This document shows, in pieces, positions 1,651 to 16,471 of a stretch of DNA of 64,000 bases. The DNA is taken from assembly GCA_017616555.1 (NCBI GenBank), contig JAFZXZ010000022.1:16-64015 (forward strand). Reading direction: 5' to 3'. The position numbers and the translations under genes were made by a program. The notes under the pieces were generated by a model that was not told where the DNA came from, did no database searches, and worked only from the letters and a program-made list of their open reading frames with translations. Each line of letters begins with the position of its first letter. Position 1 is the first letter of the stretch. Source of the DNA: a bacterium. GTDB lineage: Bacteria > Auribacterota > UBA3054.

Positions 1651-2727
1651 ATGCGCGTCGTCCACGTCGGCAAATACTACTGGCCCTACCAGAGGGGCAT
1701 CGAAACTTACCTCAAGACTCTTGCGGAAGGGCTCAATCCTTTGTGCGATCTGACAGTCATTGTCAGCAACGACAAATGCGAGACCGTGGAGGAGAACGTC
1801 TGTGGCGTGCACGTCATAAGATTAGCAAGATGCTTTCATCTCAACAGCACGGATTTCCTTTTCGGGCTCCCGAAAAAACTTAAAGAACTTAAGCCCGACA
1901 TAGTGCACATCCATCTCCCCAATCCCTGGGCGGAGACAGCCTGGAAGCTGGCAGGGCGCCCCGGCAGGCTCTTCATTTCCTATCATTCAGATATTATCAG
2001 ACAGAAATTTCTTCTGAAACTGTATGCGCCTTTTCACAGGGCCACTTTGGAAAGCGCTGAAAAAATAATCGTCGCCACTCCCAACCATATCAAGTATTCA
2101 CCTTTCCTTTCCAAGCTCGGGGAAGACAAAACGGCCGTCGTGCACTACGGGCTTCCTAAGATCGATTTCCCCGCCCCCCGAAGCTTGGCGCGTCCCTTTA
2201 TCCTCTCGGTCGGCCAACTGGTTTACTACAAGGGCTTCGACGTTCTTATCAAAGCCGTCGCCGACATTCCAGACCTGGATCTGGTAATCGTGGGCTGCGG
2301 ACCGCTGGAAAAAAAGCTAATTAAGCTTACGGAAGATTTGGGAATAAAAGAACGCGTGAAACTCCCGGGCCATGTTTCCCGCGAAGAGCTGCTTAAGTAT
2401 TACGCCGACTGCGAATTCTTCGTCCTGAGTTCGACATTCCGCAGCGAGGCCTTCGGCATAGTTCAGCTGGAAGCCTTCCAGGCCGGGAAACCGGTCATAA
2501 GCACCGATCTGCCCTCCGGCGTCCCCTACGTCAATCAGAACGGCAAAACAGGGATAGTTGTACCCCCCGGCGACGTTAGGGCCCTAAACGAGGCCATGAA
2601 GGCCCTCCACGGCGATCCTGAAGCGAGGCAGCGTTTCGGAAGCGCCGCCAGGGAAAGGGCTCTCTCCGATTTCTCCGCTGAAGAGATGGTAAAGCGAACT
2701 TTCGCGCTCTACTCTCCCAAGGCCTGA
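1651..2727 (+). CDS. GT4-family (GT-B fold) glycosyltransferase
   Basis: N-terminus MRVVHVGKYYWPY. C-terminal GT1/GT4 motif: EAFGIVQLEAFQAGKPVISTDLPSGVPYVNQNGKTGIVVPPGD. Confidence 0.85.
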   Translation: MRVVHVGKYYWPYQRGIETYLKTLAEGLNPLCDLTVIVSNDKCETVEENVCGVHVIRLARCFHLNSTDFLFGLPKKLKELKPDIVHIHLPNPWAETAWKLAGRPGRLFISYHSDIIRQKFLLKLYAPFHRATLESAEKIIVATPNHIKYSPFLSKLGEDKTAVVHYGLPKIDFPAPRSLARPFILSVGQLVYYKGFDVLIKAVADIPDLDLVIVGCGPLEKKLIKLTEDLGIKERVKLPGHVSREELLKYYADCEFFVLSSTFRSEAFGIVQLEAFQAGKPVISTDLPSGVPYVNQNGKTGIVVPPGDVRALNEAMKALHGDPEARQRFGSAARERALSDFSAEEMVKRTFALYSPKA

Positions 2728-4241
2728 TCGATCTCCTTCAAAGCCTCATCGACGAGGCGCTTCACTTCCGGCAGCCTGCTCTTCAGTTTTTTCGCGGTCA
2801 GAAGTTCTTCTTTCGCGCCCTTAAGATCCCCCATCCCCGCCAGACAGCAGGCCAGGTTGTAATGGGCTTCCACGGTCCGGGGCCGCAATTCTATGGCTTT
2901 TTTAAGGTACGGCAGCGCGGATACGTACTGCTCTTTATTGAGGAGCGCTTCCCCTACGTTGGCGTTCACCCGGAAGTTCTCCGGGGAATATTTGAGATTG
3001 TCCCGCCAGATAAGCTCCGTGTCGCACCAATAGAAATTGCGCTGGAAAGAGGCGTAAGAGAAAAGCAGTATGATGACGGAAAGAAAAGCCGCGTTGAAAA
3101 TATTCTTCCTGGCGAAAAACGTGAAAACGACGGCGATCAGGATCCCGGGGAGCGCGCAGTAAAGCCTGTGCTCGTAAAGTCCGTTTGGAATAAGCGTGGC
3201 AGCAGGGGCAAGAGCAAGCGCAAAGAATCCGAGCCCGAAGGCAAAGTAGGGATATTTTTTCCGATTTATCCAGGCGAAGGCAGCCAATGCGATCCAGAAT
3301 ACGATCGATAGGATCACCCATACGGAAGAAAAGCCCTCAAGCGGAACGTCGTACTCCAGCCTTAATCCGAAGGGCCAGAAGCACAGCCTCAGATAGATGA
3401 TCCAGACTTTAATTTGCGTGGCGAAGTAAGCCCAAACGTCAGGTGTGTCTTCGTAAAGCCTACTGAGCGGAGAAAAATCAAAGCTCGTCCCCTTCCAGAC
3501 TCCGGCGAAGCGAAGGACCAGAAGACAAAGAAGAACAAAGGCAGCTGCAGAAATAACAATATATTTTTTGTTCTCTTTAAAAAAAGATTTCAGATCAGCT
3601 GAAGCGAAGATGAAATACCCCAGGATCGCGACAAGCGGCGCCACCGCCATGTTCTCCTTGCAGAAAAGCCCGGCAATGAGCGTCAATATCGCCGGCGCAA
3701 GAAAGATCTTCTTTTTCAAAGATAAAAGCAAAAAGATCAGGTGCATGAGGAAAAAAGTGAAGCACATCAGCTCCAGCCGCTGGACGATGTAGGTCACAGC
3801 CTGCGTATTGACGGGATGGACCAAAAAAAGCGCCGCACACAAAAATGCCGGAAAACGTTTTTCTTCTGCTTTCCCGGCCGCCTCCTGCAAAAGCAAAAGA
3901 AAATAATAAAAGAGAAAACCGTTCAGGATATGGATAGCAAGGTTGACAAAGTGATACCAGAAAGTATCCAGCGCGCATAATTTGTAATTGCCCCAGAAAG
4001 TCAGGAACGCCAAAAAACGTCCGGGCGAGAAATGCCAGACGTCAATCAATTGCCCCCTCAAAGAACTGTTGTCAACTATGCATCTGAAATCATCAAACTG
4101 CCACGTCCCCTTAAACGAGGAAACGTAAGCTGCAACGGCCAGAAGTAAAAGCAAAAGAAGGTCTAAGATCCAGCCTTTATTCTTCACTATCCCGCTTCTC
4201 CCCCAGTTCATAGACGGCGAGACCGTCAAAATCGCTGACAA
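2709..4241 (-). CDS. TMTC-like GT-C membrane glycosyltransferase (DUF1736/PMT_2-like) with C-terminal TPR
   Basis: First-loop acidic motif WQFDDF. The FLVHPVNTQAVTYIVQRLELM block is typical of TMTC/DUF1736 proteins. About 10 TM segments, then C-terminal TPRs (EAHYNLACCLAGMGDLKGAKEEL). Start is uncertain: ATG 4241, ATG 4211 or GTG 4187. Confidence 0.7.
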   Translation of the reverse strand: MSAILTVSPSMNWGRSGIVKNKGWILDLLLLLLLAVAAYVSSFKGTWQFDDFRCIVDNSSLRGQLIDVWHFSPGRFLAFLTFWGNYKLCALDTFWYHFVNLAIHILNGFLFYYFLLLLQEAAGKAEEKRFPAFLCAALFLVHPVNTQAVTYIVQRLELMCFTFFLMHLIFLLLSLKKKIFLAPAILTLIAGLFCKENMAVAPLVAILGYFIFASADLKSFFKENKKYIVISAAAFVLLCLLVLRFAGVWKGTSFDFSPLSRLYEDTPDVWAYFATQIKVWIIYLRLCFWPFGLRLEYDVPLEGFSSVWVILSIVFWIALAAFAWINRKKYPYFAFGLGFFALALAPAATLIPNGLYEHRLYCALPGILIAVVFTFFARKNIFNAAFLSVIILLFSYASFQRNFYWCDTELIWRDNLKYSPENFRVNANVGEALLNKEQYVSALPYLKKAIELRPRTVEAHYNLACCLAGMGDLKGAKEELLTAKKLKSRLPEVKRLVDEALKEIDQALGE

Positions 4242-5622
4242 GATGGAAAGGCACGCCCTGTTCTTCGCACCAGCCCTTCACGGATGGCGAGATGAAGAAA
4301 TTCCTTTTCCCAGGTACGATCTCATCTTTCACGGCAACATTTTTAGCAACAAGTTTCGGAAGAGTGGCGAGATGATAACGGTAATACTCCCCGTCGCTGT
4401 AAACATCCTCCGAAACTATGACACTACCGTAAGGAATGGCCCCGAAAGCCTGGGCAAGCTTTGCGGCCTCAAAAGAACTTCTTCTAGTGGGAGCGTTGGC
4501 CACGCTGTGGCCTAGAAGAACCAGGATGCCGATAAAAAGCAGCGGGCAAAGCACAAGGCGCATCTCCTTCGACTTGGAAATATAAAAGAAGGCGCAGGCA
4601 AGAAAAACCGCCAGATACGCCGTGAGGAGCCAATACCACTGTGCGGGATAGAAATGGTAGCTTGGAACAAGGAAAAGCAAAGTCGCAAGGAGTGCGGCGA
4701 AGACCGTCGTATTCTCGATCGTCGCAATTTTTTCCGCCTTTCGGAAGAAAAGTCCCAAAAGAAGGATCGGAAAGACGAAAAGACTGAGCGCAGAAAAAGC
4801 ACAAAAACTGCTGCAAAAAACAAGGAAACTAGATCCGTATTCTGAAAGCGGCAGGACGAAATAATTGCTCCAGAACTGGCCGTTTAGAACGGCGCAGAAA
4901 AGACTTTTACAAAAGTCCTCGCGCCTCAAATACTCGCAGCTCTCTCCTTTGCTGAATAAAAAGCAAGTGTAAAGGTAAGGCAAAAGCCCGACAACAAGCG
5001 CCAAAGCTAAGCCTGCGAGGAAAGCCTTTCCCTTCCCGGCTTTGAAAAGCATTAAGGCGGCGAAAGGCAAAATAAGCGCAAAGAACCAGAGCGCCAGCGG
5101 ATCATGGAAAGCCAATATACCGCAGGGAACGAATTTCAAAGGCAGCGGAACCTTTTCGTTCGCGATCACGGCGTAGGCGAAAAAGAAAAGGCAAAAAGAC
5201 AACGATACAGGCGTCACTTCCGTGGCGGCCGTCACGATGTAAGGCAGGAAACTTACCGCCAGAACAGCAAAGAAAGTGAAAAAGCGGTCCTTGAAGCGCC
5301 GGCTCAGGGCATCCCACAGGAAAACCATCCCCAGGGAAACGCACAGCGCGGACAGAAGCGCCAGATTAGCCCCGGGCTCGCTGATGAATTTCAGATGCGA
5401 AAAGGCGCGCAGCAAAATCGTGTACAAAGGGAAGAGCGGCGTATGGGGAGAGCCGCCCTCTATTGCGATGCGGACGAACTTCGCGCTATCCGCACCGGCA
5501 AGCGCCCCGCCCGGACCGTACTGAAGACGGCACACGAACTGGACGAGGACAAGAAGGAAAAGCGCTGCGCCCGCAGAAAGCGGGCGCAGGACGTCCAAAC
5601 GATCTGTTAGCTTAGTAGACAA
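4177..5622 (-). CDS. polytopic membrane protein, DUF2723/TMEM260-like putative GT-C glycosyltransferase
   Basis: The N-terminal block GADSAKFVRIAIEGGSPHTPLFPLYTILLRAF resembles the DUF2723 signature (GDSGE...G.AHPPGYPLY.LL) as I recall it. More than 10 TM segments and a soluble C-terminal domain. Confidence 0.5.
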   Translation of the reverse strand: MSTKLTDRLDVLRPLSAGAALFLLVLVQFVCRLQYGPGGALAGADSAKFVRIAIEGGSPHTPLFPLYTILLRAFSHLKFISEPGANLALLSALCVSLGMVFLWDALSRRFKDRFFTFFAVLAVSFLPYIVTAATEVTPVSLSFCLFFFAYAVIANEKVPLPLKFVPCGILAFHDPLALWFFALILPFAALMLFKAGKGKAFLAGLALALVVGLLPYLYTCFLFSKGESCEYLRREDFCKSLFCAVLNGQFWSNYFVLPLSEYGSSFLVFCSSFCAFSALSLFVFPILLLGLFFRKAEKIATIENTTVFAALLATLLFLVPSYHFYPAQWYWLLTAYLAVFLACAFFYISKSKEMRLVLCPLLFIGILVLLGHSVANAPTRRSSFEAAKLAQAFGAIPYGSVIVSEDVYSDGEYYRYHLATLPKLVAKNVAVKDEIVPGKRNFFISPSVKGWCEEQGVPFHLVSDFDGLAVYELGEKRDSEE

Positions 5623-6007
5623 ACTCGGTCGTAACTTCGATACTGGGATTAAGACTGTTCTTCACAGGGCAGGCTTTGGCCGCGCCTTCCAGCCTTTTCT
5701 TCATGGAATCTTCCAAAGCGATCTTGGGGAAAGTAACTTTCACTTTGAAAGTCTTAACGGAAGCGGGAGACTGCTGCATCTCTTTGTCGACTTCCACCAA
5801 AAGGCCGGTCATGTCCAAATTTTGCGAAGCTGCCACAAAACCTATCATGCTGGCGGTGCAGGTCGCAAGAGCGGCGGAGAGGACGTCCGTCGGGGAAAAG
5901 ACGCCGGGAGTCCCTTTGGCGTCGGTAGCGATGGAGGTTTCGGAACCGGCCAGTTTGGCGGTGCATTTCAGGTCGCCCTGATAAGTAGCTGTTGCTGAGA
6001 GAGCCAT
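5612..6007 (-). CDS. OsmC/Ohr-family peroxiredoxin-like protein
   Basis: 131 aa with the typical OsmC layout and two Cys (ALATCTASM...AAKACPV). Confidence 0.8.
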   Translation of the reverse strand: MALSATATYQGDLKCTAKLAGSETSIATDAKGTPGVFSPTDVLSAALATCTASMIGFVAASQNLDMTGLLVEVDKEMQQSPASVKTFKVKVTFPKIALEDSMKKRLEGAAKACPVKNSLNPSIEVTTEFVY

Positions 6008-6024: not shown

Positions 6025-9000
6025 TTATGAGTTACGGCGTTTCGCAAAAAGCGCAGCCAAGATCAAGAGAGCAAAGAGAGAAGGCTCCGGCGTCAGAACG
6101 AAATCCTTGTAGCAGGAGCCTTCCGGCGTAAAGGAATAGTTCTGGTTGTCGTAGTTTACCGGCCTGACGCGCAGGCTGGTCCTCTGCTGCGGGCCGAGAT
6201 GGATAGTGTAGAACGGCAGGCCGCTCATATTGTAACGCTGCACTATGTTCTGGGTCTTTTCGGAAACGACCTGGATCTGAGCGTTGGTCACGATCTCGTT
6301 GCCAGTTCCGTAGAGAAAGCCCATGATGTAGGGAGAATATCCGTCGAGATAGACGGGGTAAGTGGGCGTGCCGGTCGAGACCACGATGTTCGTGACATAC
6401 TGCTTGCGCCCTTCGCCCCTCACGGTCAGGATATGCTCGCCGTACTGCAGCGTCAAAGCCGTGGTGCGGCCCTGCTCGGTAACGTTAGCCAAAGTGTTCG
6501 CGACTCTTGCCTCGGCTCCCACCACCGGGAAGAAGGACGAAGAGTCGGAGACCTTGGCGTAAACGAAGCCCTTGGACTCGTTGGCCTCGCAGGGAATGAC
6601 CACGCTCTTCGAGCCGTCCGTCAGATCGACTTCCAGCGCCCTTCCCTCGTAACCGTCCTTGTAAACGGAAAGATAAACTTTCCCGGCCGGCACGGCGTCG
6701 AAGACAAAAATGCCGTCCGTAGTGTTGGAGACTGCAAAGGCAAAATCCTCGCCCACCGCCCTTACAAGAGCGTCGCCCAAAAAGCCGTTGCCGAAGAAAG
6801 TGTTCGTCGTCAGAACGCCGCCTATTGCGTAGGTGGTGTTCTGCGCCGAATCGTCTTTTGTAACGTTAAGCTTCAGGATCTGGGGCGCGGAAACAGCCGT
6901 GTCGTTCGCGGCGTAGGCCGCGAAATAGTACGTGCCGGCGTACTGCGGGCGGCAGGTCACTTCCGTGCCTTCGCTGCCTGAGAGCGAAACAGGACCGCCG
7001 AAACCTGGCAGTTTGCGCCACAAGACTTTTTTGCCAAGGAAGAAATCGGCCTTCATCACGACTTCCTTGCCGGCAGCCACGGTGTATTCCTTCTGGGAAT
7101 CCGCAAAAGAAGCCTTGACATCAAGCGTGTTGGCGGGATCGAAGAAAATGGCCGTGTCGTTAATGTTGCCGGCGGAATCCCTGACCTGGCACTGGACATA
7201 GTAAGTCCTGTCTCCCGGGAAGGTGTGCGAAACGCCAACTACATCCTGCCAGACGGTCCAGCCGGAATCGTTGTCCCAGTTGAACCTGACCTGGGCTTCG
7301 TCGCCCACTGGCTGGACGACATAGGGCGTATAGACGACCGTATTGTTCCCGCGGTTTTCGGCCTCCAGATAAACGGCGGGATAAGTGTCCCTGACAAATA
7401 GGTTCGTCTCGGCTGAGGAAAGCACCACGCCGTTGGCTTTCTCAACGTTGAGCGTCAGCGTGTATTCGCCGGGCGTCACGTCGGCGAGAAATTCTCCCAT
7501 AAAGCTGTCGGAAGGCCCCGAGATCTCAAGTCCGTCGAGCAGCCAGCGGTATTTGTAACCGCCCATCGTGCCGCTGCCGTCAAGATAGACCGGGAAGCCC
7601 TGCTCCGCCGCGTAAGGTCCGTTGATGTTGACATACGGCACTTCGACCTTCGGAACTTTCACCAAAACGTTGTTGGTGACGGAATCCACGATGACGGAGA
7701 TGTTGTAATTCTTCTCCAAGCCTCCGGTCTTCAGAGGATTGACTTCCACTATGACAGGAACGCAGCCGTCCGCTCCAGGATTTATCGTTCCGGAGCTTGG
7801 GGAGATCGTCAGAGATTCGAAAATGTTGACCGTACTGAAATCGCAGCTGACCGAACCGGGGTTCGTGAGGAGCAGCACGGCGCTGCGGCCGTTCTCAAGC
7901 GTTACGGTGTCCGGAACATGCGGCCTGGCCTCCGCACCGTCTATGACGTGTTCGATAACGGTTTCTGTCACGGCGCCGTAGTTGTCCCTGACCTGGCAGG
8001 CGACGTTGAAGGTGCCGGCTGAGGTGAAAGTGTGGCTTGCGAAGTAAAAGTTCGTCCAGTCCGAATATCCCGTGCCGTCGCCGAAATTCCAGCGGATATC
8101 GAGGGAATCATGGATGCCGGGGTCTGTGGGAGCGGCGCTGAAGATCTGCGGCAGGTTGACCATCCTGGTCTCCGCTTCGCTCCAGATGTCGACGTGCGGA
8201 TAGGCGTTGGTGACGTGCAGAACAGTGTAGTTGGTGCAGATGACCGTCCTGAACGCCCTGTCCGTCACTCTCATTTCCACGTTGTAATCGCCGGGCCAGT
8301 AGATTTGGTCGTCCTTGTAGTCGTAGTAGTAGAAGTTGGTACTAAAAAGCGTCATGTCGTGGCCGACGATCCATCTGACGGTCGGCATGTAGCCCTTAGA
8401 GCCCTCGGCTGAAAGATGCGCCGGCTGGCCCTGGCCGATCGTATATTCGCCGTTGCATTCCGCGCTGACGTCGGGAATGCCCCTGACGGCTTTGCGGGGC
8501 TCGGGAGTCGGGAAATCGCCGGTCAGCCAGTAGTAGTAAGTCTGGCCAAGCGTCGCAGCGGAATCGTCGTAAGCCTGGAAGGTGCTGTCCCCTTCCCTCA
8601 GTTTCTCAGCGGTGGCGAAGTCTTCCACGGTATTGCGCCACAAAGTGACGTTGCCTTTCGTGGTGTTGCGCCAGCGGAGTCTGATCTTGTCGTCGCCGTT
8701 CATGCTGACAAAGCCGTAAGGCACGGCCCTGTTTTTGACGGAGTCGAAGGTGTAGCCCAGGCAGAATTCGTCGAAGGTTCCCTTGAAGCCCGGAGGAGCG
8801 TAAAGATACAAACTGGAGAAGTTGTAGCCCCAGTAAGAGTAGCCGTATTTGTGGAAGACCGCGTCGCTCACGTTGGGTTCGCTGCTCATATCCGGGTTGA
8901 CCCACATATAGATGTCAGTGTAGGCGTAGCCCGCGTCGTTGGTCGTTATCGTGCAGTGAGCGAGATAATGGGCGGGCGTGCCGAATTCGTGCTTGTACCC

Positions 9001-10680
9001 AGTGCCGAAGTCAAACACGTTCACCTCACCGTCCCTGTAGAAAGAGAAGCATTCATAGGAACCGCCGAGCTTGAAACCACCGTAGCCGTAACTGTCGGAC
9101 GATTCGTCCATGTCGGCCCAGACTGATAGCCAGATATCCTGCCCAGCGAGCGTAGTAAGTGAGGCGGGGCTATATTTCATCCAGTTGATGAAACGCCTGG
9201 TGGTGGCCGTTTCATTGCCTTCGTTGCAGATCCTCAAGCTTCCGCCTTCGTGCATGGCGGAGTCGTCGCCCAAGTCTCTGTCCTGAATGTAGAAAATGTT
9301 GGAAAGGCAGGCGTACCAGGGGGAAGCGAAACCGCAGCCTCCTTCCGCGAACATCAAGCCACTGCCTATAGGATAATTGAAGCTCTCATGCAAAAGCATG
9401 TCGCCGGCCGCGTGGTAAGGCACGGAGCGGTAGCGCGCGGCGTAGCGGCGCGTCTTCTCCCAGGTCAGGGCCACCTGGCATTTCAGGTTGGTGGAGATGG
9501 GAACGCCGTCGTAGTAAATATTTGTGGAGCTGTAATAGTTGAAAATGCCGTTGGATCTGGCCATGATGGAGCCGTACTCCATGGGCGCCCCGGGAGGCGT
9601 GTTGTGGCAGCCGTGGCTGTGGCCGAAGAGGCCGCCGCCGCTGGTTCCGGTCTCATCATAGTGCTGGCCGCCCATATTGTGGCCGTCCTCGTGGATCCAG
9701 CCGGTGGTGTTGACGAAGTTCACGTCCATGCAGTTGTTGGCGGAACTTTCGCTGCCGCTGACGCCGCCTGACACGTAGGCAAGACCGGTGTAGGTCGGCA
9801 TCAGAACGGCGATGGAGCACATGTCGGCGCCGTAGCGGGCTCTCAGCTGCTCGATCTGTTCAAGGCCGTTCCTGGAGTTGCACAGGCTGCTTAAGGCCAA
9901 ACTGGAATTGCAGATCTCGCCGACAGGATTGTAATAATCGACGAGCTGGGAATGCACGAGGTTGAAGCAGGACCTCACGTGGCTGTTGCTAAGTACCAGC
10001 GTTCCCAGAACGATGCCCTGGGCCAAGACGTTGTTGATGCCGCCTCTGGACTTCGCTTCTTCCAAAGCTTCCTTGGTGTAAACGATCATGTAGTTCTGCG
10101 TCACATACTCGTCGCACTGCCAGTCGTTGGTGTAGTATTGTTCAGCCTCGACCTTGCTCATTATCTGCTGCACGCCGTCGCGGGCGATAATGTCGTCGAT
10201 TGGACCGTCGCAGCCGCCGCAGGTGAAGTTTTTGGTGTTCGGTTCCAGAGCCGTAAGCTTCTTGGTCTTGTCGTTGTAAAGTATGGCGTATTCATGGTTC
10301 AGGTAAGTGTAGTCCACCTGTCCCAGCATCTGGTCCTGGTCGGAAGTGAAACGCCAGATCTCGTTATAGCCGTTGTTGCGGGGCTGGAAATAGCCCGCCC
10401 TGACTTCCACCAAGTTGATGTCGCGGTAAGCCACCGTGCACTTGCCGGTAAAGACGCCGTCCGGGGAATTGAAGAAGATGGTATCCCCAACTTCCAGCGC
10501 TTTGATCTGCTCAGGCAAGTCGGAGTCCTGAAGCTTGGTGATGTCCCTTTCATAGCCGCCTGTTATGGTGGGCGGCTCCTGACAAGTCAGGTCAACGGTC
10601 AGAATGTCCTTCGGCGGAGTCGCGAAAGATATTGCGGCGAAAACCGCCAGCAGGGAGCTGAACCAGAGTGCTTTTTTCAT
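6025..10680 (-). CDS. giant secreted PEP-CTERM-anchored metzincin-type Zn metalloprotease with LamG-like, PKD and CarboxypepD_reg-like beta-sandwich domains (paralog 1, 1551 aa)
   Basis: Signal peptide. HEDGHNMGGQH at 9661-9693, followed by a Met-turn (EYGSIMA). PKD signature WNFGDGTGYSDW...VRDNYGAVT. C-terminal PEP-CTERM: LTPEPSLFALLILAALFAKRRNS. Confidence 0.85.
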   Translation of the reverse strand: MKKALWFSSLLAVFAAISFATPPKDILTVDLTCQEPPTITGGYERDITKLQDSDLPEQIKALEVGDTIFFNSPDGVFTGKCTVAYRDINLVEVRAGYFQPRNNGYNEIWRFTSDQDQMLGQVDYTYLNHEYAILYNDKTKKLTALEPNTKNFTCGGCDGPIDDIIARDGVQQIMSKVEAEQYYTNDWQCDEYVTQNYMIVYTKEALEEAKSRGGINNVLAQGIVLGTLVLSNSHVRSCFNLVHSQLVDYYNPVGEICNSSLALSSLCNSRNGLEQIEQLRARYGADMCSIAVLMPTYTGLAYVSGGVSGSESSANNCMDVNFVNTTGWIHEDGHNMGGQHYDETGTSGGGLFGHSHGCHNTPPGAPMEYGSIMARSNGIFNYYSSTNIYYDGVPISTNLKCQVALTWEKTRRYAARYRSVPYHAAGDMLLHESFNYPIGSGLMFAEGGCGFASPWYACLSNIFYIQDRDLGDDSAMHEGGSLRICNEGNETATTRRFINWMKYSPASLTTLAGQDIWLSVWADMDESSDSYGYGGFKLGGSYECFSFYRDGEVNVFDFGTGYKHEFGTPAHYLAHCTITTNDAGYAYTDIYMWVNPDMSSEPNVSDAVFHKYGYSYWGYNFSSLYLYAPPGFKGTFDEFCLGYTFDSVKNRAVPYGFVSMNGDDKIRLRWRNTTKGNVTLWRNTVEDFATAEKLREGDSTFQAYDDSAATLGQTYYYWLTGDFPTPEPRKAVRGIPDVSAECNGEYTIGQGQPAHLSAEGSKGYMPTVRWIVGHDMTLFSTNFYYYDYKDDQIYWPGDYNVEMRVTDRAFRTVICTNYTVLHVTNAYPHVDIWSEAETRMVNLPQIFSAAPTDPGIHDSLDIRWNFGDGTGYSDWTNFYFASHTFTSAGTFNVACQVRDNYGAVTETVIEHVIDGAEARPHVPDTVTLENGRSAVLLLTNPGSVSCDFSTVNIFESLTISPSSGTINPGADGCVPVIVEVNPLKTGGLEKNYNISVIVDSVTNNVLVKVPKVEVPYVNINGPYAAEQGFPVYLDGSGTMGGYKYRWLLDGLEISGPSDSFMGEFLADVTPGEYTLTLNVEKANGVVLSSAETNLFVRDTYPAVYLEAENRGNNTVVYTPYVVQPVGDEAQVRFNWDNDSGWTVWQDVVGVSHTFPGDRTYYVQCQVRDSAGNINDTAIFFDPANTLDVKASFADSQKEYTVAAGKEVVMKADFFLGKKVLWRKLPGFGGPVSLSGSEGTEVTCRPQYAGTYYFAAYAANDTAVSAPQILKLNVTKDDSAQNTTYAIGGVLTTNTFFGNGFLGDALVRAVGEDFAFAVSNTTDGIFVFDAVPAGKVYLSVYKDGYEGRALEVDLTDGSKSVVIPCEANESKGFVYAKVSDSSSFFPVVGAEARVANTLANVTEQGRTTALTLQYGEHILTVRGEGRKQYVTNIVVSTGTPTYPVYLDGYSPYIMGFLYGTGNEIVTNAQIQVVSEKTQNIVQRYNMSGLPFYTIHLGPQQRTSLRVRPVNYDNQNYSFTPEGSCYKDFVLTPEPSLFALLILAALFAKRRNS

Positions 10681-10700: not shown

Positions 10701-11864
10701 TTATTTAATTTTATCATTCTTAAGTTTTTCGGCTATCATTTCCCTGACTTCCAAACTCTCTTTGCCGACCGGCATGAGGATCCAGGCGTGCATGACGCTT
10801 TTGCCGATGAAGAGCGTGGCGTCTATCCCTTTGCGTTTAGCCAGTTCGTAAAAACGCGTGGCATGCGAGGAGAAGACCTCCTTGCTTCCGGTGAAGATGT
10901 CCATTGGCGGGAAGCCTTCCAGATCCCCGTGATAAGGGTCGCACTCGTTGTGTGTGGCAGCGTTCCCAGGGCGCAGGAAAACGTTGAGATTATAGATGAG
11001 CTGCAAAGGTATGAGGATGTCGTCCGGCGCCAGGATCGCCATTTCCTCTTTGCAGTTTTCCTCGCTGACATCAATGTGCGCCGGGGAAAAGAGGAAGAGA
11101 CGGCTAGGCAGCGGCAATTTGTTGTCCCTGGCCCTGAAGCAGACGGTCAGACATAGGGCGCAGCCGGCGGATTCGCCGAAGAAGGCAATGTCTTCCGGCT
11201 TGTAAACCTTCAGCATCTCCTTGTAGGCTTCGAAGCAGGTCGTGGTGGAACGGTACATGTCCGTATCCGGCAGCAAGGGATAATCCGGGAACCAAATATC
11301 CCTCTCCCCTTTCTGAAGGAAGTAAAGGGCCAGATCCCAGTGCTGCAGCATAGGCGGCAATATCATACCGCCGCCGTGACAGTAGAGCAGTGCCTTGCCG
11401 TTTCCCTTCTTCTGCCTTATGATCTCACAGTGCCGTCCGTCAGAAAGAGGCAGAGATTCCACGTCCTTTACGACTTTCAGCCACTTGGGAGCGTAGGTCT
11501 CCTTCCAGCTCGTCTTCTTGTCCAGCTTGCTCTTCAATTTATCCGCCGGCTTGGCGAAAAGTTTCTTGGGTCCGAAAGTCTTGGCCGCCAGCGCCTGCAT
11601 ACGGTAGAGTATGCTGGGCTTGACCGTGGCGTTGATGTTCGTGATCTCGGCGAAATGCGCGGCCACCGCCTGCTTGTATTCAGGCGAGAAATCGAAAGCG
11701 TGCCGCGCTTTCATGACGTCCATCGCCTCGTAAAAGGCGTTGGTGGAACCTTTCGACTTAAAGTAATTCTCCACCTCGCCGTAGGTGGCGAGGCCGTCAG
11801 TCTCGCCGCCGAAAAGCAGCGAAGTGGCAAGAAAGAAAAATATGAAAAGGTTTATCTTCGCCAT
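10701..11864 (-). CDS. secreted alpha/beta-hydrolase, HSL-type (family IV) esterase/lipase
   Basis: Signal peptide MAKINLFIFFFLATSLLFG. Oxyanion motif LLYCHGGGM, nucleophile elbow GESAGC, and a C-terminal His (SVMHAW). Confidence 0.8.
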   Translation of the reverse strand: MAKINLFIFFFLATSLLFGGETDGLATYGEVENYFKSKGSTNAFYEAMDVMKARHAFDFSPEYKQAVAAHFAEITNINATVKPSILYRMQALAAKTFGPKKLFAKPADKLKSKLDKKTSWKETYAPKWLKVVKDVESLPLSDGRHCEIIRQKKGNGKALLYCHGGGMILPPMLQHWDLALYFLQKGERDIWFPDYPLLPDTDMYRSTTTCFEAYKEMLKVYKPEDIAFFGESAGCALCLTVCFRARDNKLPLPSRLFLFSPAHIDVSEENCKEEMAILAPDDILIPLQLIYNLNVFLRPGNAATHNECDPYHGDLEGFPPMDIFTGSKEVFSSHATRFYELAKRKGIDATLFIGKSVMHAWILMPVGKESLEVREMIAEKLKNDKIK

Positions 11865-14800
11865 TTCAGCGCAAGAAGAAGCGCTATAAGCGCTATGAGA
11901 GCCGGTTCCGGAGTCAAAACAACGTCGTGTTCAACGATAGAATCGGAATTTATGCTGTAGTTCTCGTTGTCGTAACCGTCGAGGCGGTAGCGCAGCGTCA
12001 CGGGGTGTCCCGGCGTAAGGCCGATGAAATAGAAGGGCTCGCCGTTCATACTGTGACGATCCACGATGTTCTTCGTAAGGTCGGACAATACCTGGATGGT
12101 GCCGGCTTTCACGGTCTCGCCGCCGGTGCCGTAGAGGAACCCGTGGACGAAGGGCGAGTATCCTTCGCTTTCGACGTCATAGGTCTTGGCCCTGGCTTCC
12201 GGAGAAACGCTCTCAACGACAATGTCCCTGCCGGGAATCTCGACTGTCATGACATATTCGCCGTAGGGCAGCGTAAGAGCCGTAGAACGGCCCTTGTCGG
12301 TGGTGGTGCCTGTCTTTGACCCTGCGGTGACAACAGCGCCCTTTATGGGCAATTTGGAGCGGTTGTCGGCCAGCTGGGCGTATATTATGCCGCTGCCGGT
12401 GAGATCTTCCGCTTCCAAAGTGACTACCTGAGACTCGTTGGATATCACGGTATCGTAAACAAGTCCGGCGTAACGGTCGCTACTAAGGCAGAGTGAGACG
12501 GGCCCGTACGGCAATCCTTCCAAAATGAAAGTGCCGTCAACTTCGTTGGAAACAGCCAAAGCATAGTTCTTGCCGACAGCCCTGATGATGCATTCGCCAG
12601 TAGTGTCGCAGCCGTAGATGGTGTTGGTCACGACTACGCCGGCAAGGGAACCGCAAAGGTCTATGGCTTCCGTTTCCTTCGTTACGTTGAGGGTAAGAAC
12701 AGCTGGCGCGCTGATGGCCTTGTCGTTCTGGGCGTAGCAAAGGAAGCAATAGGTGCCCGGCTTCTCCGGCATCACTGAGAAGGAGGCGGCGGAAGCGTCT
12801 TCTATGAGGCCGAGCTGAGGATTGGAGAAATTCTCGCGCCAAACGATGTCGCACTCCCCGACTTTTGTCGCGCTTACGGTCACGCTGGCGCCCGAGGAGA
12901 CTGAATATTCTTTTTCGCCGTTCTCAAAAGTTGCTTTGACACTCAGAGGATCTTCCGGACTGAAGCGGGCGGAGGTTGCGTTCTCCTTACCGTAAGCCCT
13001 GATCTGGCACTGGACGAGGTAGGTGCGGTCGGCTTTGAAGGTATGAGTCACTTCGGCTGGTGATTGCCAGATAGTCCAGCCAACGCCCTCGTCCCAGTTG
13101 AAGCGGACTTCCGCCTCTCCGGGAGCGTGCATGATGACTCTGGGAGAATAAGTGACGGTAGTCCCCTCCCTTCCTGTTTCTTCCAGGAAGACCTCGGGAT
13201 CGATAGTCGCGGAGGAAATGATGTTGGTAACGGCCGCCGCTACAGCCTCGTTGGATTTCAGCGCCTCAGTTACAAGTTCGTGCTCGCCTTCCTCCAGTGT
13301 GAGGATCGAGTCAAGAATCAGGCTCTTTTGCGGAGCGCCGATCTCTTCTCCATCCAGGAACCAGCGGAAACTGTAGCCCGGTTGACTGCCAAGGGCGGAG
13401 AAAGTCGTTTCATACTCTCCCAGGATATCGAAGGGGCCCTGGTAAGCCAGCTGGCAGGGAACATAGGGAATGTTTACTCTCACGTCATGAGTCTCGTCGC
13501 CGATCTTGAGCTTTAAGTTAAAGATGCCGGACGTGCCTCCGGTGGCGGCGTGGTCATAAGTCAAAAGCACGGTTTGGTAGCCGCTGACGGTTCCGCTGGC
13601 GGGATAGGCGGAAAGAAGATCGTTCTGGGTGTCGATCTCGTAATCGTAAGGAGAGGAGCCCTTGTTGCCCAGGACTAAGACAACGGAATGGCCGTTGCTC
13701 ATCGTGATCCTGCTCGGGAAGAACGGGACAGGGCTGGAGCCGGAAATAACGATGTTGCCTTCTTCCCTCGTCACAGCCTCGTAGTCGTCCTTGACCTCGC
13801 ACTCCACTTTGAAGCTGCCCGCTTCCGTGAAGGTGTGCGCGAAGTAATAGCTGTTGGTCCAGGGGCTCCATTCCGTCTCGGGAGCGAAGCGCCATCTGAC
13901 GGTCAGGATGTCGTTGGTGCCGGGATCGGTGGGATAGGCGTGGAAGATCAACTGCTTGCCGGCCATCTTTTCCGCCGTCTCGCATTCGAAAGTCACGTGC
14001 GGATAACTGTTGGTGACGTGAAGTACGGTCGTGTCTTCCAGAATGTCGGTCTGAACTTCCTGCTCCGTCACTTCGATCTTGACCGGATAATCGCCGGGCG
14101 TCATGATGATCCTTTCGTTGAAGGCATAGTCGTAGTGGTTGGTAAGGAAGACTGTGTCGAAAGTCCCGACCGTCCAGCGGATCATGGGCAGAAAGCCAGT
14201 TGTGCCCTTGGCGGTGAGATGCGCAATTTGTCCCTGGCCGATAGTGTATTCGCCGTTGGCTTCCACCGTATCCACGGGCGTTCCCGCAACGCCTTTTCTT
14301 ACAAGCGTCGTGAACTCGTGGTCGGTGTAGTTGGCTTTCAGCCAGTAGTAGTACGTGACGCCGGGTGTTACATTGACGTCTTTGAAACTGGCGGTGCCGC
14401 CGCCTAAATTGGATATACTTGTCGCGGACGCGGGATCGTTGACCGTGGATCTGAGAATATCGAAGGATTCGGGCTCGGTGACGTTGCGCCAGACCATCCT
14501 GATGAAGTCATTGGTATAGCCGCCAGGAACGATCCTGAAGCCGGAGGGCCTTTCCGGCGGATTCAGTGAGGCATAAGTGAAGCCGATCCTCAGATCATCC
14601 AGTTCGCCCTTGAAGTCGTTCATGCTGTAAAGCGTCAGATAACGGTAATTGCTGAAGTAACTGACGTTGCTCACATCCACGATAAAATCGGCGCTGGAAG
14701 GATCGGGCTCGCTTATGCCTTCGTAATCTTTCCAAACGCTGACGGTAGTATCAGTTTCCCCCATTTCAAAATGGACCAATACGCTGAAGGGCACGTCATA

Positions 14801-16471
14801 ATCATAAGTAATGGCGGAGATCCCGCCGTTGACCCTGATCTTGTTGTCATTGAAGCGGAGATAGAAATTGCCCAGATAAATGTAGAATATTTTGTCGCTC
14901 TGGATCTTCAGGGTGCTCTTCAGCCAGAAATTCGTTCTGCTGTAATGATAGTCGCCGTTGATGTTGCGACCCCAGAAGATGAAGCGCCTGGCCGATTCGG
15001 AGCCGGCGTTGTCGTTCCTGATCCTCAATACGCCGCCTCTGTGAAAACCTTCCCTCCCAAAAGTGTCGGCAACCGTCTGGAAAATATTGGTGTTGCAGTT
15101 CTCCCAAGGAGTGCAGAAGCCTTCGCCGCCTTCCTGCCACATAAGCCCCATGCCGTCAGGATATTCGAAATCCTCGGCGCAGACGAGCCCGTCCACGTCG
15201 GGAACGACGGGATTGCAGCGGTATCTAGCGGCGTAGCGCCTGATCTTCGTCCAGGTGTCGGCCACGCGGCACTTAGCGTTGGTGCTGATCGGAACGCCGT
15301 CGTAGTAGATGTTGGTGGAGGAATAATAGTTGAAGAGGCCGGCGGAACGGGCCATGACGGAGCCGTATTCCCTGGGCGCCCCGGGAGGCGTATTGTGGCA
15401 GCCGAAGCTGTGGTCGAAAAGGCTGCTCCGGTTGTTTTCAGCATAGGTGTCGATGTAGTGGCGGCCGCCCATGGTGTGGCCGTCCTCGTGGCACCAGCCG
15501 GTGCCGCCCAAAAAGTCGGAGTCCATGCAGTTGAAGGGAATGGATTCGGAGCCAGTCTGGGAGTAGTTGACGTTGGCGAGGCCGGTGTAGGTGGCGTGCT
15601 TGATGCCGATAGACCCCATGTCACATCCGTAGCGGCAGCGCATGTCATAGGCGTCCTCGCAGCCGTTGCGGTAGCCGTTGAAGTCGCCAAGGCTCTTGCC
15701 GGAATTGTGGTTGTCCGGGTAATCGGAAAGCAGCTGCGAGTGACCGAGCCTCAGGCAGGCCTTGATGTTGCTGTTGCTTAAAAGCAAGGTGCCATGGACG
15801 ATGCCGTGGGCCATCAGGTGGTTGATGCCGCCTTTCCTTTTGGAGTATTCGTAGGCGTCCTTGGTGTAGCAGATAAGATAATTCTGCGTCACGTATTCCG
15901 GCACTTCCCAGATGTTGGTGTAGAAAGTGGCCGGCTGCGGAGCGGTAAAGTTGGCATGGATCTCCGATTTTTGTTCCTCGCTGAGTTCGGAAAGAGCCGC
16001 GCCGTCCTCGTTGCCGCAGCGGAAATCCTTCATGCGGCTGTCCTCGCAATAGGCCATGAGTTTACCGCTGGCTTTGGTGTAAAGTATGTTGTATTCCTTG
16101 GCAAGGTAGGTGTATTCCATCCAGCCCACCAGCGCGTCCTGGTCATAGGTAAAATGAAAGATCTCCCTGTAACCGTTGTTCCGCGGCTCAAAATACCCGG
16201 CCCTCACTTCCACCATGTTGACGTCGCGGTAGGCCACGCCCACAGTGCCCGTGAAGACGCCCTCGGCCGTTTTGAAAACGATCTGGTCTTTGTACTTCAG
16301 GGCCCTCACCTGTTCCGGGAAATCGGCGTCCTGAAGTTTGGTGACGTCGGTGCCCATGATCGTTGAAGCGCCGGCGTTCTCAAAGTCCACCACGAGCAAG
16401 CCTTTTTTGGGAGGCGTAGCGAAAAGAGAGGAAGCAATAAAAAGAACTGAGAGCAGTAAGAGTTTTTTCAT
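11852..16471 (-). CDS. giant PEP-CTERM metzincin/PKD protein (paralog 2, 1539 aa)
   Basis: Collinear with paralog 1 and roughly half identical by eye. HEDGHTMGGRH at 15458-15490. PKD motif. C-terminal LTPEPALIALIALLLALKWRR. Confidence 0.85.
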   Translation of the reverse strand: MKKLLLLSVLFIASSLFATPPKKGLLVVDFENAGASTIMGTDVTKLQDADFPEQVRALKYKDQIVFKTAEGVFTGTVGVAYRDVNMVEVRAGYFEPRNNGYREIFHFTYDQDALVGWMEYTYLAKEYNILYTKASGKLMAYCEDSRMKDFRCGNEDGAALSELSEEQKSEIHANFTAPQPATFYTNIWEVPEYVTQNYLICYTKDAYEYSKRKGGINHLMAHGIVHGTLLLSNSNIKACLRLGHSQLLSDYPDNHNSGKSLGDFNGYRNGCEDAYDMRCRYGCDMGSIGIKHATYTGLANVNYSQTGSESIPFNCMDSDFLGGTGWCHEDGHTMGGRHYIDTYAENNRSSLFDHSFGCHNTPPGAPREYGSVMARSAGLFNYYSSTNIYYDGVPISTNAKCRVADTWTKIRRYAARYRCNPVVPDVDGLVCAEDFEYPDGMGLMWQEGGEGFCTPWENCNTNIFQTVADTFGREGFHRGGVLRIRNDNAGSESARRFIFWGRNINGDYHYSRTNFWLKSTLKIQSDKIFYIYLGNFYLRFNDNKIRVNGGISAITYDYDVPFSVLVHFEMGETDTTVSVWKDYEGISEPDPSSADFIVDVSNVSYFSNYRYLTLYSMNDFKGELDDLRIGFTYASLNPPERPSGFRIVPGGYTNDFIRMVWRNVTEPESFDILRSTVNDPASATSISNLGGGTASFKDVNVTPGVTYYYWLKANYTDHEFTTLVRKGVAGTPVDTVEANGEYTIGQGQIAHLTAKGTTGFLPMIRWTVGTFDTVFLTNHYDYAFNERIIMTPGDYPVKIEVTEQEVQTDILEDTTVLHVTNSYPHVTFECETAEKMAGKQLIFHAYPTDPGTNDILTVRWRFAPETEWSPWTNSYYFAHTFTEAGSFKVECEVKDDYEAVTREEGNIVISGSSPVPFFPSRITMSNGHSVVLVLGNKGSSPYDYEIDTQNDLLSAYPASGTVSGYQTVLLTYDHAATGGTSGIFNLKLKIGDETHDVRVNIPYVPCQLAYQGPFDILGEYETTFSALGSQPGYSFRWFLDGEEIGAPQKSLILDSILTLEEGEHELVTEALKSNEAVAAAVTNIISSATIDPEVFLEETGREGTTVTYSPRVIMHAPGEAEVRFNWDEGVGWTIWQSPAEVTHTFKADRTYLVQCQIRAYGKENATSARFSPEDPLSVKATFENGEKEYSVSSGASVTVSATKVGECDIVWRENFSNPQLGLIEDASAASFSVMPEKPGTYCFLCYAQNDKAISAPAVLTLNVTKETEAIDLCGSLAGVVVTNTIYGCDTTGECIIRAVGKNYALAVSNEVDGTFILEGLPYGPVSLCLSSDRYAGLVYDTVISNESQVVTLEAEDLTGSGIIYAQLADNRSKLPIKGAVVTAGSKTGTTTDKGRSTALTLPYGEYVMTVEIPGRDIVVESVSPEARAKTYDVESEGYSPFVHGFLYGTGGETVKAGTIQVLSDLTKNIVDRHSMNGEPFYFIGLTPGHPVTLRYRLDGYDNENYSINSDSIVEHDVVLTPEPALIALIALLLALKWRR

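Follow-up and report, generated by a model that had tools for sequence, protein, structure and literature searches.

We analysed a 64,000-nt stretch of bacterial DNA (the window) from contig C6 of an uncultured rumen bacterium, a metagenome-assembled genome (MAG) of 1.66 Mb and 84% completeness (GenBank assembly GCA_017616555.1) whose relatives are the ruminant-gut 'Bacterium RGIG...' MAGs and UBP3_UBA3054. On its minus strand the window carries two adjacent genes for membrane-embedded GT-C glycosyltransferases, one TMEM260-like and one TMTC-like. The conserved unit is this gene pair itself, which is fixed across one bacterial order. We consider it to be a self-standing cassette of two enzymes that use polyprenyl-phosphate-linked sugars, and the O-glycosylation of exported proteins is its most likely function. 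A first-pass annotation of the window had proposed a glycosylation system dedicated to the PEP-CTERM proteases encoded just upstream; the GT-C identities on which that proposal stood are confirmed by profile methods, while the dedicated-substrate hypothesis is weakened by the synteny and by the abundance of PEP-CTERM proteins in the genome. The features of the pair, with the evidence for each in brackets, are as follows (ORF, open reading frame; aa, amino acids; TPR, tetratricopeptide repeat).

4177..5622, minus strand: TMEM260-like (DUF2723/GT117-like) GT-C glycosyltransferase, 481 aa, TTG start (ORF, family profile, model)
5488..5490, minus strand: codon of Asp45 (in GADSAKF), equivalent of human D52, the donor-site Asp in the first periplasmic loop (HMMER and MAFFT)
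5443..5445, minus strand: codon of His60 (in GGSPHTP), equivalent of human H67, also a donor-site residue (HMMER and MAFFT)
4405..4407, minus strand: codon of Asp406 (in VSEDVY), which closes the opening strand of the C-terminal alpha/beta domain and aligns with human D441
2709..4211, minus strand: 500-aa GT-C glycosyltransferase of TMTC-like (GT105-like) type ending in a short TPR tail, ATG start at 4211 (ORF, hhalign)
4089..4094, minus strand: codons for the two Asp residues of WQFDDF, the DD motif (TMTC motif M1) of the first periplasmic loop (alignment with the TMTC counterpart)
2712..3020, minus strand: TPR tail, about three repeats forming six helices (Pfam TPR and model)

Both minus-strand ORFs lie downstream of the metzincin and OsmC genes as the first-pass annotation had described, and the OsmC identity was confirmed. 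The TTG start of the TMEM260-like gene at 5622 is backed by orthologs beginning MSTK..., and it therefore overlaps the OsmC stop by 11 nt, the value given earlier. The start of the TMTC-like gene, also backed by orthologs, is ATG 4211, so that the overlap with the upstream TMEM260-like gene is 35 nt; the 65 nt stated previously holds only for the maximal TTG ORF at 4241.

Family membership of the two enzymes

Human TMEM260 is a protein O-mannosyltransferase of the endoplasmic reticulum that modifies IPT domains (PMC10214176); it is GT117 in CAZy and PF11028 (TMEM260-like/DUF2723) in Pfam, and its structures are PDB entries 9rql, 9rqm and 9rqn. The N-terminal signature DS...G..H.P..PLY, by which the window protein had been likened to this family, fits its sequence GADSAKF...GGSPHTPLFPLY. 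Used as a single query, the protein gave no match in Pfam, NCBIfam or the PDB, and its close family is small, comprising 20 clusters in 5.8 billion proteins. The profile of this family matched human TMEM260 (PDB 9rql chain A) at an E value of 2.9e-5, with residues 18-417 aligned to residues 29-453, and hhalign of the family against a human TMEM260 fragment gave an E value of 5e-4. When the same profile was run against a library of 1.8 billion proteins, 681 were retrieved; the 10 profile matches scanned all pass PF11028, P0145, P0148, P0151 and P0153 being among these passing relatives, and the canonical long members reach E values of about 1e-14. At the locus itself PF11028 scored 20.1 bits, below the cut-off of 24.2 (E 4e-4, profile positions 1-60 only), and the pair-type orthologs in four sister families scored 36.6-64 bits. 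The AlphaFold2 (AF2) model of the protein, with a mean predicted local distance difference test (pLDDT) score of 81, predicts a five-strand alpha/beta domain at the C-terminus. Its top Foldseek matches, at a probability of 1.0, were ArnT, ALG12, ALG9, PglB, STT3, AftB and Pmt4, and as modelled the membrane domain has a GT-C fold. The TMEM260-like identity is thus borne out by the family profile, by the PF11028 scores of the sister families and by the model.

The functional residues of human TMEM260, D52 among them, have been reported (PMC10214176; preprint 10.64898/2026.03.17.711096), and D441 was described as the catalytic base in a Rossmann-like luminal palm (preprint 10.64898/2026.03.17.711096). 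We mapped them by a HMMER alignment and by an independent MAFFT alignment of 28 sequences (14 of them pair-type), and the two were in agreement. Asp45 is conserved in 27 of the 28 MAFFT sequences and His60 in all 28, and both are invariant in the close family (alignment A1). Asp406 is present in 14 of 14 pair-type sequences and variable in other bacterial PF11028 proteins, and it is the invariant column D398 of alignment A1; alignment and model together identify it as the putative catalytic-base equivalent in a palm-like domain. At the position of human Y267 the window protein has Phe, as do all the bacterial sequences aligned. Human R264 and R355, the donor-phosphate residues, are replaced by Asn and Trp, respectively, and the remaining bacterial PF11028 proteins in the alignment likewise lack both Arg residues. 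For TPR there was no Pfam match and no helical repeat in the model, and the chain runs on for only about 75 residues past the palm Asp. With core and palm kept and the chain stopping before the TPR 'fingers', the enzyme appears to be a minimal, divergent TMEM260 made up of the donor-binding core and the palm.

It resembles human TMEM260, accordingly, in the GT-C core, in the first-loop Asp and His, in the aromatic residue at the Y267 position and in the small alpha/beta domain past the last helices with its invariant Asp. Unlike the human protein (707 aa), it lacks the fingers and both of the Arg residues, stays below the PF11028 cut-off, is always encoded with a TMTC-like partner and is expected to use an undecaprenyl carrier in place of a dolichyl one. 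ArnT (GT83), the undecaprenyl-phosphate-Ara4N:lipid A transferase, belongs to the same donor class and is the best match among solved structures (Foldseek E 7e-6, TM-score 0.59). It differs in having a lipid acceptor and neither a TPR nor a palm with a catalytic Asp, and at the sequence level the TMEM260-like family significantly matches no solved structure but TMEM260.

For the second protein, the features that had suggested a TMTC/DUF1736-type enzyme, namely WQFDDF, HPVNTQAVTYIVQR and the C-terminal TPR, are all present. We compared the bacterial family alignment (A3) with 12 TMTC1-4 membrane-domain sequences taken from the published alignment in the supplement of PMC7801869. The bacterial membrane-domain family matched animal TMTC1-4 by hhalign with a probability of 100 and an E value of 2.3e-44 over 387 columns, both profiles being covered end to end. 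The cross-controls were negative (TMEM260-like family A1 against TMTC, E 0.23; TMTC-like family against human TMEM260, E 0.61), and a profile-profile comparison of the two window families detected no mutual similarity. Homologs number 361 and are about 30% identical across 90% or more of the membrane domain; several carry the JGI label protein O-mannosyl-transferase, and one carries the NCBI label phospholipid carrier-dependent glycosyltransferase.

Seven ligand-site motifs have been defined in TMTCs, SHKSYRP, RxD, KE(T/Q)xxT, DW, PxxP and ERxxY being M2 to M7 (PMC7801869). The bacterial family keeps the DD motif, M3 as R145-x-E147, M4 as K185-E186, M5 as E/D-Y287 and M7 as E347-H-R349-x-Y351; of M2 the Arg (R65) alone is left, the SHKSY part of the first loop being missing, and the correspondence at M6 is ambiguous. 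D40 and D41 of the DD motif are invariant or nearly so in the family alignments (43 and 16 sequences), and the block HP.QTQAVTYIVQR corresponds to HP.HTEAV..VGR of the TMTCs. Pfam TPR_1, TPR_2, TPR_8 and TPR_19 match residues 428-496 of the 510-aa ORF at E values of 1e-7 to 1e-8, and the AF2 model (pLDDT 90) has six helices at residues 398-499.

The DUF1736 part of the earlier description fared less well than the TMTC part, which the profile-profile comparison upheld. A search of the genome with PF08409 (DUF1736) gave no match at the locus even at E <= 10, hmmscan gave none either, and the model matched only 1 of 16 family members, at an E value of 0.48; the equivalent loop is present but diverged. 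No Pfam or NCBIfam model passes directly on either membrane domain, and it took profile methods to confirm both families. A PDB search with the profile of the TMTC-like membrane domain gave nothing credible, and the matches included no TMTC membrane-domain chain; with the single sequence it returned TPR proteins only, and Foldseek of the model was swamped by TPR matches and gave no GT-C signal. The GT-C fold of this protein is assigned by its homology to TMTCs, and the full-length profile match together with the retained motifs argues for a genuine TMTC homolog with a short TPR tail.

The protein shares with animal TMTC1-4 (GT105, O-mannosyltransferases of cadherins and protocadherins) homology over the whole 11-helix membrane domain, the motifs M1 DD, M3 Rx(D/E), M4 KE, M5 (D/E)(W/Y) and M7 ER..Y-like, the HP.(H/Q)T(E/Q)AV block and a C-terminal TPR on the non-cytoplasmic side. 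Animal TMTCs have about 740-910 aa in total and a TPR region much longer than that of the 500-aa window protein. Unlike them, the window protein has only about three repeats, lacks the SHKSY of M2 and part of the first loop, and has no DUF1736 match. It is a clear member of the prokaryotic TMTC-like 'TPR repeat protein / protein O-mannosyl-transferase' family, and full-length prokaryotic TMTC homologs are known to exist (PMC7801869). The pair-type subfamily stands apart from this wider family by its short TPR tail and by always following a short TMEM260-like gene.

Conservation of the pair and of its surroundings

To see how far the arrangement extends, 79 species genomes of the phylum were surveyed. 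The short TMEM260-like gene was found only in the order to which the window belongs, namely in all nine genomes of the genus and in seven of nine genomes from four other families. In each of these 16 genomes, which represent five families, the two genes of the pair are adjacent and co-oriented. Moreover, the TMTC-like gene directly downstream on the same strand was the genome's best-scoring one in 7 of 7 carriers from the other families and in 9 of 9 genomes of the genus; the nine other-family genomes have 1-5 TMTC-like genes each. The same pairing was seen on the metagenomic contigs L013, L014 and L016. We regard the pairing as established, together with the gene structure, the homology, the fold and the conservation of catalytic residues.

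The minus-strand genes run in the order lptB, three giant protein genes, the OsmC-like gene, the TMEM260-like gene and the TMTC-like gene, with a gene for an HSL-type esterase between the second and third giant. The features around the pair are listed here.

5612..6007, minus strand: OsmC-like protein, directly upstream of the pair (PF02566, E 1.5e-16)
6025..10680, minus strand: third giant PEP-CTERM metzincin/PKD protein, 1551 aa, a candidate substrate
11852..16471, minus strand: second giant PEP-CTERM metzincin/PKD protein, 1539 aa
16482..21026, minus strand: first giant PEP-CTERM metzincin/PKD protein, 1514 aa
1651..2727, plus strand: convergent GT4 (GT-B) glycosyltransferase (Pfam Glycos_transf_1 and Glyco_transf_4)
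5565..5589, minus strand: GC-rich hairpin with a U-rich tract, candidate leaky terminator or attenuator (scan, fold, conservation)

All three giants carry a signal peptide, the metzincin motif HExxHxxGxxH and PKD and CarboxypepD_reg-like domains, and end in TPEP, a hydrophobic helix and a basic tail, which is the PEP-CTERM signal. The giants are somewhat rich in Ser and Thr (14-16%, against a median of 10.6%). The 19-nt overlap described earlier between the 3' ends of the GT4 and TMTC-like genes was found at 2709-2727.

The arrangement giant-OsmC-TMEM260-like-TMTC-like recurs in each of the 8 related MAG loci and on the more divergent contig L013, the genus of which is unassigned and whose TMEM260-like protein is 39% identical, and a convergent block of GT4, hypothetical and OmpA genes is kept in most loci of the window's lineage. 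Within the other four families the pair has unrelated neighbours, and neither OsmC, nor a giant, nor an adjacent GT4 was found at those loci; one family has type IV pilus genes there, two have an HTH_GRAD gene and another has what is, from sequence inspection only, a helicase-like gene. The linkage with PEP-CTERM/PKD giants that had been expected across relatives is thus limited to the window's lineage, i.e. its own genus and L013. Since the pair is kept in other families without the proteases, the conserved unit is the pair and not the pair plus the proteases.

Some of these other neighbourhoods deserve a description of their own. A gene for a protein of 551-555 aa directly follows the pair in two other families (L028:3266-4921 in genome G060; L024:8618-10285 in genome G062); the G060 copy is annotated HTH_GRAD, the two products are alike at their N-termini, and the gene may be a third cassette member in these lineages. 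In one family (L023:702-7881 in genome G058, and L018:334-7511) the pair is preceded immediately by MshEN/PilB-, PilC-, PilS- and PilR-like genes, and at L018 a 709-aa TPR protein that is weakly TMTC-like is inserted between the pilus genes and the pair.

At two loci of the window's genus (L011:3621-5027 and L012:4328-5734) the TMEM260-like gene is only 47-49% identical to that of the window. The neighbouring genes there are as conserved as elsewhere in the genus, with identities of 86-89% for OsmC, 80-84% for the TMTC-like protein and 66-75% for the giant. This fits allelic replacement of, or diversifying selection on, just the TMEM260-like enzyme. Such a pattern speaks against close co-evolution at an interface between the two enzymes, or else marks a switch of specificity.

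The hairpin lies 23 nt past the OsmC stop, within codons 12-20 of the TMEM260-like gene. It has 10 base pairs, 9 of them GC, followed by CGCUUUUCCU, and its predicted fold has an energy of -27.4 kcal/mol (z = -5.5). Among seven sequences of the genus (the window and six loci) the stem is unchanged or wobble-paired, its preservation extending to synonymous sites, and the loop and the flanking third positions vary; at L011 and L012, with their divergent TMEM260-like allele, and at L013 the hairpin is degraded. Judged by these properties it looks like a leaky terminator or attenuator, which would give low read-through expression of both enzymes behind highly expressed structural genes. With a conserved hairpin between OsmC and the pair, simple co-transcription is not assured. 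The sequencing runs that matched the locus were DNA metagenomes only, no RNA run being among them.

Donor, acceptor and the readings considered

We infer the donor, the acceptor class and the transcription of the pair as follows. The two genes would be translationally coupled through their overlapping stop and start. On the periplasmic side of the inner membrane, each enzyme would take a single sugar from undecaprenyl-phosphate-sugar and put it on Ser or Thr of exported proteins that are still extended after Sec translocation. Within this genus the cassette stands behind three giants and OsmC and would probably be expressed via read-through of the hairpin. The giants, or the PEP-CTERM proteins of the genome generally, are plausible clients rather than a dedicated substrate set.

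The extended-segment mode is drawn by analogy with human TMEM260, which acts on extended peptide substrates (preprint 10.64898/2026.03.17.711096). The first-pass annotation had the enzymes act on folded beta-sandwich modules, a claim that for TMEM260 is contradicted by the extended peptides in that structure preprint.

As for the donor, GT-C enzymes of this kind draw on polyprenyl-phosphate monosaccharides, the products of GT2 enzymes of the DPM1/ArnC/GtrB type. The convergent GT4 had been suggested as a source of a lipid-linked donor. All its NCBIfam equivalog matches are far below cut-off and give no specific family, and it is linked to the pair only in the window's lineage. Because it is a GT-B enzyme, acting on nucleotide sugars and not a GT2, and has no specific family match, it is unlikely to be the donor synthase, and we rejected it on enzyme class. 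An ArnC/PgfS-like GT2 of 324 aa is encoded on another contig of the same genome, so polyprenyl-phosphate-sugar donors can be made.

A number of observations count against O-glycosylation of exported proteins by the pair. A search of all ORFs of the genome for the sequon of the human TMEM260 IPT type gave no credible match, and in the literature we found no glycosylation data for this organism or for any bacterial TMEM260 or TMTC member. DUF1736 fails on the TMTC-like protein, and PF11028 stays below its cut-off on the TMEM260-like protein of the window. The replacement of R264 and R355 means that the donor may differ from that of human TMEM260, and ArnT being the closest solved fold to both families leaves room for a non-protein acceptor. 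Finally, with all pair-bearing genomes in a single order, common ancestry could account for part of the pairing. We nevertheless hold protein O-glycosylation to be the probable function, after weighing the following alternatives.

An ArnT-like role, in which the acceptor is not a protein but an envelope component (lipid A or lipopolysaccharide core, exopolysaccharide or another glycolipid) and the TPR docks on envelope machinery, is in our judgement unlikely. It draws on the position of ArnT as top structural match of the TMEM260-like model and as closest solved homolog of the TMTCs (PMC7801869), on the loss of the donor-phosphate residues of human TMEM260, and on the presence of lptB just upstream of the giants. 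However, the D441-equivalent Asp and its strand are invariant in the pair-type subfamily and not in other bacterial PF11028 proteins, and in the human enzyme D441 deprotonates the peptide hydroxyl (preprint 10.64898/2026.03.17.711096). Furthermore, the characterised members TMEM260 and TMTC1-4 serve protein O-mannosylation (the transferase activity of the TMTCs by inference), and a separate, more ArnT-like set consisting of a PMT_2 GT-C, an ArnC-like GT2 and WecE is encoded elsewhere in the genome.

If the acceptor is a protein, the original proposal would make the pair a system dedicated to the three adjacent giants, with one enzyme for each beta-sandwich class and the GT4 supplying the donor. 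The gene order kept in the related MAG loci and on L013, the abutting or overlapping genes and the raised Ser/Thr content of the giants speak for it, yet we think it rather improbable: the pair occurs without giants, OsmC or adjacent GT4 in four other families, a conserved hairpin with a U-tract separates it from OsmC, GT4 enzymes do not make polyprenyl-phosphate monosaccharides, and TMEM260 works on unfolded segments. Adjacency is also cheap in this genome. By a regular-expression count there are about 62 PEP-CTERM ORFs, mostly of 500-1900 aa, which together take up about 163 kb or some 10% of the genome, and proximity to some of them is therefore weak evidence. Exosortase genes were found in 61 of the 79 genomes of the phylum, whereas the pair is confined to the order, so their distribution does not track the pair beyond shared ancestry; the exosortase gene of the present genome lies on another contig than the pair. 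That the clients are instead type IV pilins or pilin-like proteins, and not PEP-CTERM proteins, seems very improbable to us. The pair or its first gene does stand directly behind pilB-pilC-pilS-pilR-type genes in family f2 (G058) and at L018, but this context occurs in one family of the order only, the pair has no pilus genes beside it either in the window or at the loci of families f3-f5, and no pilin gene was identified beside the pair in any locus examined.

A more speculative extension of the protein O-glycosylation reading, which we regard as improbable, joins the two proteins into one split hetero-oligomeric enzyme, the TMEM260-like protein contributing donor site and palm and the TMTC-like protein contributing in trans, through its short TPR tail, the 'fingers' that would grip the extended acceptor peptide, and lets this enzyme glycosylate the PEP-CTERM surface proteome at the Sec exit; in another version the second active site would attach a further sugar. 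If it were so, the pair would be the bacterial analogue of the Pmt1-Pmt2 dimer, with subunits drawn from two GT-C families, and the divergent TMEM260-like allele in two genomes of the genus could mark a switch of sugar or sequon specificity. The Pmt proteins (Pmt1-Pmt2 and Pmt4, GT39), obligate dimers of two related subunits, share the GT-C class with the window enzymes, and Pmt4 is among the structural matches. Unlike them, the window enzymes have no MIR domain and come from two families that lack mutual profile similarity, and a dimer is here hypothetical.

In the literature we found no bacterial member of TMEM260 (GT117) or TMTC (GT105) with an assigned substrate, prokaryotic homologs being only mentioned as existing. 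The fixed pair offers a compact entry into a possible bacterial protein O-glycosylation that would do without oligosaccharyltransferases of the PglL/PglB type and without GT39 PMTs. PEP-CTERM proteins have long been suspected to be glycosylated. The pair is a candidate enzyme set for such glycosylation in a bacterium in which about 10% of the DNA encodes these proteins, an unusually large investment. A minimal bacterial TMEM260 could also help to separate catalysis from substrate capture in the human disease enzyme.

Related genes elsewhere in the genome

In the only exosortase of the genome (686 aa; G000:C27:2853-4913, locus L020), Exosortase_EpsH is fused to an EpsI-like DUF3485 domain; throughout the order the open frames with exosortase matches are 642-776 aa long, compared with about 270-580 aa elsewhere in the phylum. 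A canonical 1080-aa TMEM260-like protein with TPR (PF11028, 115 bits; G000:C27:6669-9911) is encoded on the same contig, about 1.8 kb from the exosortase gene and in divergent orientation, with pyrF and panE between them. The genus shares this arrangement in 8 of its 9 genomes, but in other families the two genes are on separate contigs, for which reason we rejected the exosortase linkage of the canonical TMEM260-like gene as independent evidence.

The ArnT-like set (G000:C17:314757-322154, L022:4758-12155) comprises the genes for a 788-aa PMT_2-type GT-C, a WecE-like dTDP-4-amino-4,6-dideoxy-sugar aminotransferase and the 324-aa GT2, and is interrupted by two CstA-like genes. This ArnC/PMT_2/WecE cluster looks like a separate system. 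The same genome also encodes a second, unpaired TMTC-like paralog of 602 aa (G000:C7:25152-26960, L021:8153-9961), the gene of which lies directly 3' of that for a 747-aa MGH1/trehalase-like glycoside hydrolase.

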